36,352 nucleotides of DNA, from IMG/VR virus record IMGVR_UViG_3300025018_000315, positions 1-36,352 of that record. One strand, 5' to 3'. Positions 34,290 through 36,352 of the stretch are shown in pieces (the first letter of the stretch is position 1; every line of letters begins with the position of its first letter). Both the position numbers and the translations under genes were made by a program. A model generated the notes under the pieces. The model had not been told where the DNA came from. It ran no database searches and was given only the letters and a program-made list of their open reading frames with translations. The DNA comes from a virus (lineage: Duplodnaviria > Caudoviricetes).

Positions 34290-34370
34290 CATGGTAACAT
34301 GAAGACATAAAAGGATAGATGTTACAAGACATAATAGAGTTATAACCACCTATCCCTACACTACATAAAA

Positions 34371-34442
34371 TTGACACTGTATAGATTTTTAGGTTATAAT
34401 CACTTGTGAAAGCGGACAAGTGATTTACATTGCTTATCCACA
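34371..34442 (+). promoter_or_regulatory. Inward-facing promoter at the IS left end, hairpin and DnaA box
   Basis: TTGACA (34371-76), 18-nt spacer, TATAAT (34395-400); hairpin cacttgt/acaagtg (34401-34422); TTATCCACA (34434-34442). Confidence 0.6.
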
Positions 34443-34662
34443 AATGCATACGTCCGTAAGTATGTTCAAATAAAAAAAATACTGTTATAGTAAACAGTAT
34501 CAAATTCCTTGTAGATATGAATAAATTAGTATTCAAAATAAATACTTTGTAATTTGTAATTTGTGCGGTTGCGTTTTTTTGTTTGTGTTTACACTTGACA
34601 CAATAGCGATTTTTTGGTAAGGTCTTGCAACATTACAAGACAGTCTATAAAGAGGCAAAAAG

Positions 34663-34729
34663 TGGACGTATGGAGATTTGAACTCCCAAGGTCTAGGATA
34701 GGAAGCCCGACTTGCACCGTGCTACGCCC
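34663..34729 (-). ncRNA. tRNA-like element with reduced D-arm (anticodon-like loop CTTCCTA, i.e. TCC/Gly)
   Basis: Acceptor GGGCGTA/TACGTCC + A; T-arm GGAG-TTCAAAT-CTCC; mini D hairpin GCA-CGG-TGC; bulged anticodon stem; no encoded CCA. Confidence 0.65.
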
Positions 34730-34760
34730 TGTTTTTGTCCCTTTATAGAACGTTTTGTTC

Positions 34761-35030
34761 TTAATCCTTTCAGTAACAATTACGAGCGGGGGTATCTAGT
34801 TATAGACGTTAGAAGCGTCTATTTCTTTTTTTTACGTGGAAAAAACTTAAACCACTTACCTGATTTAGAGAATATCAATGTACCATTACGATGTATTGCA
34901 TTGCATAACATCATACCATCTTCATCTAAAAAACAAATTTGCTGTTGCTTATTCATAAGCTTATTTCTCCTTTCTGCTGGAACACACCATGCAATGAGAT
35001 AAAGCTCGTAATTGTTACTGAACGGATTAA
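34761..35030. repeat. 27-bp inverted repeat (one mismatch) enclosing 216 bp
   Basis: ttaatcctttcagtaacaattacgagc (34761-34787) versus gctcgtaattgttactgaacggattaa (35004-35030). Confidence 0.92.
34819..34956 (-). CDS. 45-aa basic passenger peptide of the IS
   Basis: MNKQQQICFLDEDGMMLCNAIHRNGTLIFSKSGKWFKFFPRKKKK*; strong SD AAAGGAG upstream of ATG 34956. Confidence 0.65.
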   Translation of the reverse strand: MNKQQQICFLDEDGMMLCNAIHRNGTLIFSKSGKWFKFFPRKKKK

Positions 35031-35216
35031 TTTTTTGGATCAAAAAAGACCAAACACCTGACTCCAACCACATTTGATTTCACTTAGATAATCAATTTTG
35101 ATTGGTTGTTGACTCCCACCAAATTGCCTTGAGGCTATTTGCTGTGGTGGAGCCATGTGTATGGTCTCTTGGTAGTTATCTACAAGGTGAATAAATAAAT
35201 AAGAGTCAACGTAATT

Positions 35217-35245
35217 ACTATATACCTAATGTCTTATCTTGTCAA
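35217..35245 (-). promoter_or_regulatory. Sigma70-type promoter for the IS cargo
   Basis: TTGACA (35245-35240), 17-nt spacer, TATAGT (35222-35217). Confidence 0.7.
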
Positions 35246-35325
35246 GCTAATTTGATTTCTTTAGCATAACTGATATACTGCAACCAATATGAATAATCAA
35301 TACCTTAAAAACCTAAAGAAGATAA

Positions 35326-36186
35326 TTACTGCAAAATTGCAGAAAGAAGAACGTCAAAGCGAACCCTGTCGTTGTATCGGTTGTTGTAATGCCAAACAAA
35401 CGCATCAAGATAAGACTGAAGATACTTCTTTGAAATAACCTTGTGTGTACCTTTTACACTTCTTTTAACGTGTGACCAAAAACTTTCAATATTATTTACA
35501 TATACGTCCCCAGAGACGTATTGTTTTTTTGAGTGATTAACTGTTTGTCTATGGTAACCACTTCCATATCTATTTGAACTATCTGTCAATAATCGAGTAT
35601 TTTCTAAATCAATATTTTCATCAATAAACTCTTCAATAGTTATAGCACGAACATTTGGTACTTTTTTAGCACGCATTACTCCGTTACGCTCTACTGCTCC
35701 TATTACTTTACTTTTATTTGCCATTACAGAACTAGCATTTTTATTATCTTCTCCACCATATCCACGTCCACCAAAATATGCTTCATCCATTTCAACATCT
35801 CCACGAAGTCTAAAGTTACCTTGCCCTAAACACTCTCTAATTAGCTTTAGAATACGCCATGCTGTCTTATAGGTAACATTTAGCTGTCTTTCCATTTCTT
35901 TTGCTGATATGCCTGATTTTGCGTTACTAAAGATAAATATAGCATGAAACCATTTTAATAAATGAGTTGTAGACTTTTCAAATATAGTTCCTGCCATAGG
36001 TGCAATTTGAAAACGACATTTACTACATTGATATTGTTTACGTTCTTTTATTCTGTTATATGTTCCACCACATGAACATTCTTTTGTGTGAAGAACTGAA
36101 AATAAATAATCTAAACAAGCGTCCTCATTAGGAAAGTCTTTTTGAAAATCTATTATTCCATATTTCGTTTCTTTTGCCATATACAC
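35326..36186 (-). CDS. tnp: IS1595-family (ISXO2-like) DDE transposase
   Basis: Zn ribbon CSC...CSKC, HTH (ISAKEMERQLNVTYKTAW), VEMDEAY, LLTD and NNIESFWS motifs. Promoter TTGACA-17-TAATAT lies within the right TIR region. Confidence 0.95.
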   Translation of the reverse strand: MYMAKETKYGIIDFQKDFPNEDACLDYLFSVLHTKECSCGGTYNRIKERKQYQCSKCRFQIAPMAGTIFEKSTTHLLKWFHAIFIFSNAKSGISAKEMERQLNVTYKTAWRILKLIRECLGQGNFRLRGDVEMDEAYFGGRGYGGEDNKNASSVMANKSKVIGAVERNGVMRAKKVPNVRAITIEEFIDENIDLENTRLLTDSSNRYGSGYHRQTVNHSKKQYVSGDVYVNNIESFWSHVKRSVKGTHKVISKKYLQSYLDAFVWHYNNRYNDRVRFDVLLSAILQ

Positions 36187-36352
36187 CTATATTACTCTAG
36201 TATGATTATGTTGTCAAGGGATAGGTGTGGAGTTATACACAGACTACACTTTAAGGAGGGAAAGAAGTGTAGTATAATGAACATATCCGAAAGGATGAAC
36301 ACCTGAATGGAATACTAAGATACAAAGATAAACTGTTTAGATTATCTGGTAT

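Follow-up and report, generated by a model that had tools for sequence, protein, structure and literature searches.

A compact tRNA-like gene with alanine identity marks and a glycine anticodon is cargo of a mobile IS1595-family element in a phage contig

IS1595-family insertion sequences duplicate 8 bp of their target, and family members with passenger genes are called 'transporter IS'. Several irregular tRNAs have been described elsewhere. The tRNA-Pyl of Methanomethylophilus alvus has no connector and has a bulged 6-bp anticodon stem (PMC7609411, PMC6337575), and mitochondrial tRNA-Ser(UCN) is similar in shape and keeps the GG and the T-loop (PMC7609411). Allo-tRNAs are irregular cloverleaves with serine or alanine marks, including G3·U70, that disagree with the anticodon (PMC5389517, PMC7609411). 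Some of them are associated with transposon or toxin-antitoxin genes and have changes that destabilise them (PMC5389517). Mukai et al. found that transposon-linked allo-tRNAs were inactive in E. coli translation and that two of six converted variants were lethal, and they left the role of transposon-linked irregular tRNAs open (PMC5389517). Charging by AlaRS and SerRS, and largely by LeuRS, is independent of the anticodon, and for AlaRS the G3·U70 pair is enough (PMC11415595). The hybrid-identity tRNAs tRNA-ProX and tRNA-ProA have a mismatch between identity and anticodon that predicts encoded mistranslation (PMC10404621, PMC11415595).

We analysed a stretch of 36,352 nt (the window), a 36-kb phage contig that encodes terminase, portal and ERF proteins and whose DNA is present in groundwater and aquifer metagenomes. 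The contig carries a known kind of insertion sequence, an IS1595 family member (Table 1): it encodes a DDE_Tnp_IS1595 transposase and has terminal inverted repeats (TIRs) of about 24 bp and an 8-bp target-site duplication (TSD). As in other transporter IS, variable cargo lies downstream of the transposase, but the cargo in the window differs in being mostly structured RNA plus a gene for a 45-aa peptide. The closest named relatives of the transposase come from Patescibacteria, and thus the host of the element is probably a member of this group. The empty site was found in run X1 (joint 34336>36230) at a depth of 32.7 versus 8 for the IS-bearing form, and in runs X2 and X3 the IS ends were joined to other flanks; the window DNA may itself derive from X1 and X2. 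Run X3 carries positions 34441-35138 unchanged. Since X1 contains the empty and the filled site and the other two runs have other flanks, the insertion is recent and the element is mobile. The tRNA-like gene lies about 300 bp inside the TIR and is absent from the empty site, so an integration-site remnant was ruled out, in agreement with the earlier note, which had described the gene as moving with the IS. Contigs in runs X2 and X3 with the joints 35454>36205 and 35451>36206 resemble non-autonomous relatives of the IS that have suffered internal deletions. The perfect-consensus promoter-like site at the cargo end points into an AT-rich stretch without a long ORF.

Table 1. Features of the IS1595-family element and its cargo (positions in the window)
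Feature	Position	Strand	Basis
IS1595-family element, 1885 bp	34345..36229	-	TIRs, TSD, empty site, other flanks
TIR, cargo end	34345..34368		inverted-repeat search
TIR, transposase end; overlaps promoter-like site 36217-36189	36206..36229		inverted-repeat search
TSD, left copy GAGTTATA	34337..34344		sequence and empty site
TSD, right copy GAGTTATA	36230..36237		sequence and empty site
IS1595 DDE transposase	35326..36180	-	PF12762, 103 bits, E 2e-29
Perfect-consensus sigma-70 promoter-like site, inward from cargo end	34371..34400	+	promoter scan
Sigma-70-type promoter-like site for cargo transcript (11/12)	35217..35245	-	promoter scan
Structured 5' leader, predicted long stem ending in three-way junction	35043..35171	-	folding; no Rfam match
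Arm A of 27-nt inverted repeat enclosing the peptide gene	35004..35030	-	inverted-repeat search
45-aa basic peptide, unnamed family	34819..34956	-	homology, predicted structure
Terminator-like hairpin, opposite strand, at peptide stop codon	34802..34822	+	terminator scan
Arm B of 27-nt inverted repeat	34761..34787	-	inverted-repeat search
Predicted long stem, 5' leader paired with 3' trailer, tRNA-like gene on top	34635..34758	-	-22.5 kcal/mol
Compact tRNA-like gene, 67 nt	34663..34729	-	structural parse, covariance model
Convergent promoter-like site TTGACA-17-TAAGGT, weak -10	34595..34623	+	looser promoter scan only

Read on the minus strand, the 67-nt gene has every feature that the earlier note had listed, together with two defects that it had not, a G49·A65 mismatch (T-stem 4/5) and U37. 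The acceptor stem is paired at 7/7 positions with one G·U at 3-70, and a 3-bp D-hairpin (GCA/UGC, 3-nt loop) follows it directly. The anticodon stem has 6 bp and a 2-nt 3' bulge, with UCC in a 7-nt loop in which the canonical U33 is present and the purine at position 37 is absent. A 3-nt variable loop, a UUCAAAU T-loop and A73 complete the gene, and CCA is not encoded. These base pairs were taken from a scripted parse and not from formal covariation, as the MAFFT alignments were not structure-true. The whole tRNA-Ala identity set (G1-C72, G2-C71, G3·U70 and A73) is present, while the anticodon is that of glycine. The nearest host tRNA is also tRNA-Ala, weakly (score 8.0, next 6.5), and the 3' half of a Patescibacteria tRNA-Ala matches the gene at 22 of 26 nt. 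In the predicted ensemble, the acceptor stem has pair probabilities of 0.88-1.0 and the T-loop part 0.55; the probability is 0.02 for the three pairs that close the anticodon loop. With U37, G49·A65, a 3-nt D-loop and this unstable anticodon arm, the window copy is, on the predicted folds, the weakest of the four copies that were parsed, and it is probably a weak member of its class.

In shape the gene resembles M. alvus tRNA-Pyl, with which the window copy has in common a connector of zero length, a tiny D-loop, a 3'-bulged 6-bp anticodon stem, a 3-nt variable loop and G1-C72. The 6-bp anticodon stem, 3-nt variable loop and 0-1 nt connector are all tRNA-Pyl features, but membership was ruled out because the window copy has UCC and not CUA, and A73 and not G73; no PylRS gene was found in the element. 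The tRNA-Pyl of Methanosarcina and Desulfitobacterium lack the D-loop GG and canonical T-loop that the window copy has. Type I mitochondrial tRNA-Ser(UCN) likewise has a short connector, a small D-loop with GG, a 6-bp anticodon stem, a 3-nt variable loop and the T-loop motif, but its connector has one base, and the window copy sits in bacterial or phage mobile DNA and combines alanine marks with a glycine anticodon. This disagreement between identity marks and anticodon is also found in allo-tRNAs. However, allo-tRNAs have 8/4 or 9/3 acceptor/T stems and resemble tRNA-Sec, whereas the window copy is 7/5, class I and compact; with its 7-bp acceptor, no eighth acceptor pair and five T-stem positions with one mismatch, it was ruled out as an allo-tRNA. 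Unlike allo-tRNAs as described, it is the TIR-bounded cargo of an IS1595 element of Patescibacteria type, and 'Parcubacteria' and 'OD1' are absent from the main text of PMC5389517. The tRNA-like domain of a tmRNA was ruled out too, since the element is contiguous and gave no tmRNA call. The 2-nt connector, 5-bp anticodon stem and score above 29 bits of canonical tRNAs (RF00005) were not found either. By defining features, therefore, the gene is not a canonical tRNA, tRNA-Pyl, allo-tRNA or tmRNA. It has the shape of M. alvus tRNA-Pyl and would act like the hybrid-identity tRNAs. It differs from tRNA-ProX and tRNA-ProA in having no dedicated synthetase beside it and a non-canonical scaffold, and in being carried by an IS, where it follows a peptide gene that is faced by an antisense promoter.

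The check with ARAGORN proposed in the earlier note gave no tRNA or tmRNA call at the gene, and the best Rfam match was tRNA-Sec (13.2 bits, E 3.8). Its folding energy did not differ significantly from that of shuffled sequences (z -0.99), and we dropped it as support. A descriptor of the T-arm plus 7-bp acceptor had matches in 5 of 2000 shuffled versions of the IS and in 9 of 200 of the window. When a covariance model was derived from one unrelated phage tRNA, its top match in the window coincided exactly with the gene (15.1 bits, E 0.07; the next match scored 8.3). The two CCA-ending phage copies described below scored 24.6 and 26 bits on Rfam against a cut-off of 29, and other cargo tRNAs scored 47-62 bits, with 47-59 bits for the nine of the 16 IS cargo tRNAs described below that were scored together. 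Genes with the compact scaffold go unannotated because they score below the ARAGORN and Rfam thresholds.

The scaffold, defined as the absent connector plus the 3-bp GCA/UGC D-stem, is shared by the window copy and four other elements (L296, L126, L373 and L420). The D-loop GG and canonical T-loop are kept in 5/5, and the 6-bp anticodon stem is shared by three of the four others. L296, from a Patescibacteria genome, was retrieved by peptide homology alone and has a 70-nt element in the same slot. Its core (no connector, GCA-loop-UGC-AA) is as in the window, its 6-bp anticodon stem has one defect, and its acceptor is 7/7 paired despite changes from the window copy at positions 3, 4, 6 and 7. 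It has G73 and a UGC anticodon, and thus shares neither the alanine marks nor the anticodon; no recognisable transposase-bearing IS was found in the 3.2 kb examined. L373:1494-1561 and L420:1494-1562 are CCA-ending tRNA-Arg(ACG) genes in phage tRNA arrays; they lack the connector and have D- and anticodon stems of 3 and 6 bp. They were chosen for acceptor pairing, so that pairing is not independent evidence. L126 has a D-arm without connector inside a TIR-bounded, distant IS1595 whose transposase is 34% identical. Like the window copy it has G3·U70, A73 and the 49-65 mismatch, with one acceptor mismatch, and its anticodon is ambiguous (CCC in the scripted parse, UAG in relaxed ARAGORN). A model of the window copy aligned all four arms to L420 (25.6 bits), L373 (25.1) and L296 (21.9), although canonical tRNAs reach 24-25 bits on it through the top half alone; L126 scored 15.4 bits (E 0.08). 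Judging from these sequences, the missing connector is a common design and not a one-off defect. The earlier note had named the lack of structural conservation in related elements as counting against it, and because the structure is conserved in these four, this objection does not hold. Its term 'mimic' undersells the gene: CCA is indeed absent, but the same scaffold forms the CCA-ending tRNA-Arg(ACG) of two phage arrays.

The compact scaffold is rare. No new member was found in 390 further Patescibacteria genomes, and scans of 391 and 14 genomes returned L296 again plus two matches in coding sequence. Four viral scans gave 103, 120 (22 of 64 parts covered), 8 and 67 loci, and the structural filter left only L373 and L420 of these. 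L371 was set aside (6/7 acceptor pairs, different anticodon arm), as was L585, which has a 2-nt connector. A search of 100 loci with the window-derived model at default filters returned full-size tRNAs only; it missed the known compact members and was therefore insensitive. Apart from the L008 peptide, no close DNA relatives of the cargo were found in 141 IS loci, nor any in five genomes, and a window-specific pattern had 0 matches in viral sequences. In the literature searched, with subscription papers and supplements outside its scope, we found no description of the compact scaffold in phages and no account of tRNA cargo in IS1595 elements. Two further reduced tRNA-like genes (L371:997-1064 and 1494-1564) are intergenic in a 58-kb phage.

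We then compared related elements. A tblastn search of 272 loci and the window identified 88 distinct related elements, of which the 63 with a left TIR and a cargo longer than 300 nt were kept. Leaving the window aside, 16 of 62 cargos contain a tRNA gene, with none in 20 shuffled sets, and for 14 of the 16 the element has a perfect 8-bp TSD. In all 16, the nearest host tRNA belongs to another amino acid than the anticodon does; the reference was 69 tRNAs of two Patescibacteria genomes with anticodons masked, on which the host control was correct in 48/69, and four of the 16 assignments are low-scoring (12-15.5). Most bodies are of serine, leucine, alanine or arginine type, and combinations recur. 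Serine bodies have the anticodon CCU, UCU, CCA or UAU and leucine bodies CCA (in three cases) or UGA; one alanine body has GUC; and arginine-like bodies have GCU or ACU and keep C35 and U36, which are ArgRS marks. The cargo tRNAs are mounted on leader-trailer stems with a median of -20.1 kcal/mol versus -7.0 for host tRNAs (n=21 vs 68; p 9e-6). Host tRNA genes seldom encode CCA (11 of 68), and among five relatives a CCA-enzyme family domain was found in 5/5 and RNase P RNA above the cut-off in 3/5; the absent CCA of the window copy is therefore uninformative. The transposases show no codon self-avoidance, the codons that their own cargo tRNA would misread being below the median in 8/17, and the window transposase has 12 GGA/GGG codons against a median of 7.

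Beyond the anatomy, IS carriage and mobility, scaffold recurrence and body-anticodon mismatch across related IS cargos, which we observed, we infer transcription, release, charging, decoding and any benefit to the element as follows. The gene would be co-transcribed at the 3' end of the peptide RNA and cut out slowly, probably throttled by the long leader-trailer stem. Host enzymes would add CCA to the released RNA, AlaRS would charge it with alanine, and this hybrid-identity tRNA would misread GGA/GGG inefficiently or keep AlaRS/EF-Tu occupied. The benefit that we favour would be a selfish or defensive stress on host translation. We put this reading forward tentatively, as a possibility that still falls short of being probable. 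It is consistent with the recurrence of the scaffold in four other elements, with the working of the same geometry in translation in M. alvus tRNA-Pyl and mitochondrial tRNA-Ser(UCN), with the 16/16 mismatched cargo tRNAs on their leader-trailer stems and with the processing machinery of the relatives. On the other hand, the window copy is degraded, its assignment to alanine by alignment is weak, and the four low-scoring body assignments weigh on the wider pattern. L296 lacks the alanine marks and the anticodon, L126 is ambiguous in its anticodon at 15.4 bits, canonical tRNAs score well on the window-copy model, and the scaffold is rare. Moreover, the transposases do not avoid the codons that would be misread, the window transposase being rich in GGA, and the transposon-linked allo-tRNAs of PMC5389517 were inactive in E. 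coli translation.

The degraded state of the window copy raises the alternative of an eroding passenger: a compact or hybrid tRNA that used to function, became non-functional in this IS lineage and now does no more than cap the terminal hairpin of the transcript. Besides U37, G49·A65, the shortest D-loop and the unstable anticodon arm, this would fit the scores below the Rfam and ARAGORN thresholds, against 47-62 bits for other cargo tRNAs, and the lack of codon avoidance. Furthermore, its 5' part agrees in 11 of 13 bases with the D/anticodon junction of a full-size cargo tRNA with an Ala body (L004), and it is therefore conceivable that the window copy arose by deletion from a full-size tRNA. 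However, the GCA/UGC core is common to four other elements, so a private deletion would not explain the scaffold. The fully paired acceptor, the intact alanine marks and the canonical T-loop also argue against erosion, as does the repetition of the alanine marks and the 49-65 mismatch in L126, a distant IS. We consider erosion unlikely.

The predicted cargo transcript runs from the promoter through the three-way-junction leader, arm A, the peptide gene, the hairpin and arm B to the stem capped by the tRNA-like gene, and its 626-nt region folds at z -8.1 (20 shuffles). The predicted promoter and fold thus agree with the earlier placement of the gene at the 3' end of the peptide transcript. The note had proposed two roles for it there, a processing signal and a decoy or antitoxin RNA. 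As for co-occurrence, a tRNA-like gene lies behind the peptide in six of 11 loci with E <1e-9, and two added loci, L296 with and L297 without it, bring this to 7/13; in the other six there is either a plain hairpin at this place or no tRNA-like structure. Conversely, such a peptide is missing upstream of 14 of the 16 tRNAs in other IS cargos. Because the peptide and tRNA modules occur apart, both proposals are weakened, and we keep them as rivals.

As a processing or stability signal, the gene would be cut by RNase P at its 5' end, the 27-bp duplex of arms A and B would close the peptide mRNA, and the RNA would be a by-product. RNase P reads the acceptor stem and T-loop, the best kept parts of the window copy, and mascRNA is a comparable 3'-end processing signal. 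The slot that follows homologous peptides is occupied by very different tRNA shapes, by a simple hairpin or by no tRNA-like structure at all, which also speaks for a signal. But a mere cut site needs no non-cognate anticodons in 16/16 cargo tRNAs, most of which have no such peptide upstream, and a paired leader and trailer should hinder RNase P. Deleting the 3' part barely alters the predicted access to the ribosome-binding site, which counts against this role, and a translational switch by arm B was dropped because none was predicted. The processing signal seems rather unlikely to us.

The peptide has two conserved cysteines and is predicted to form a small beta-sheet of five short beta-strands (pLDDT 87). 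Its family is unnamed and has 93 clusters; no match was found in Pfam, PHROGs or PDB/Foldseek, and the best atlas score was 0.78. Members are basic and about 45-70 aa long (window, L006, L008, L275, L276, L286-L288, L292-L294, L296, L297), and their genes usually have a long inverted repeat around them, a three-way-junction leader before them and a convergent promoter pointing at them. This layout is toxin-antitoxin-like, yet the peptide is not hydrophobic. In type I toxin-antitoxin systems, a small toxic peptide, typically hydrophobic, is repressed by a cis-antisense RNA. A convergent promoter-like site is present at the same position in eight of 11 peptide loci (same-strand control 0/11), but the window peptide is basic and predicted all-beta. 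In the window, this site and the terminator-like hairpin would yield an antisense RNA of about 200 nt across the tRNA-like gene.

With such an antisense RNA, the tRNA-like RNA might belong to a toxin-antitoxin-like module as a decoy or antitoxin that never enters the ribosome and binds the basic peptide or soaks up a synthetase or a tRNA-targeting enzyme of the host or of a phage. The conserved convergent site and the small, basic, conserved peptide are in line with this, as are the restriction-modification and toxin-antitoxin-like genes among other IS cargos (read from ORFs) and the allo-tRNAs near toxin-antitoxin genes (PMC5389517). Against it, no tRNA-targeting protein was found in the element and no nuclease or tRNA-binding fold for the peptide in Pfam, PHROGs or PDB, the peptide occurs without tRNA and tRNAs without peptide, and the convergent promoter tracks the peptide rather than the tRNA (4/17 tRNA loci). 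We regard the decoy as distinctly improbable.

Misreading by a hybrid-identity tRNA, our preferred reading, could be extended to the whole group: IS1595 elements of Patescibacteria and phages would spread deliberately mismatched tRNAs, including an undescribed compact class shaped like tRNA-Pyl and overlooked by ordinary tRNA finders, that are caged in leader-trailer stems until their release as a translation-corrupting RNA toxin in addiction or abortive defence, with the window copy as the Gly-to-Ala member. This extension is doubtful. The IS1595 elements are a defined, TIR-bounded test set of identity-swapped cargo tRNAs, and thus the role that Mukai et al. left open for irregular tRNAs becomes directly testable. 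Our findings also suggest that the geometry of tRNA-Pyl and mitochondrial tRNAs occurs in bacteria and phages with anticodons for ordinary amino acids, which is relevant to the evolution of tRNAs and to scaffolds for engineering the genetic code.

Several other loci deserve mention. Three peptide-linked tRNAs (L276:1275-1376, L292:1284-1385 and L287:1236-1325, minus strand) have very long or two-armed variable regions and the anticodons GAA, UGU or AGU. A promoter-led long stem with a three-way junction, similar to the leader in the window, recurs in the IS1595 cargo of L002, L006, L008, L012, L014, L017, L018, L153 and L205, with no Rfam match at gathering level in the loci scanned. A second group of small basic peptides encoded in IS cargo, with an ITxRxG motif (L002:4935-5114, L125:1473-1595, L162:4027-4164 and L223:4437-4595) is possibly a distant branch of the 45-aa peptide family, with weak HMM scores. 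The tRNA at L122:4883-4954, which has an Ala-type acceptor and the anticodon GUC, lies some 2.6 kb downstream from the transposase of a distant IS1595. The cargo of L010 contains an apparent reverse-transcriptase-like ORF and a small accessory ORF, as read from the translation. At L016:2932-6754, two tandem IS1595 copies with different cargo are jointly bounded by one 8-bp TSD, the TSD of this locus being scored at the ends of the second copy.
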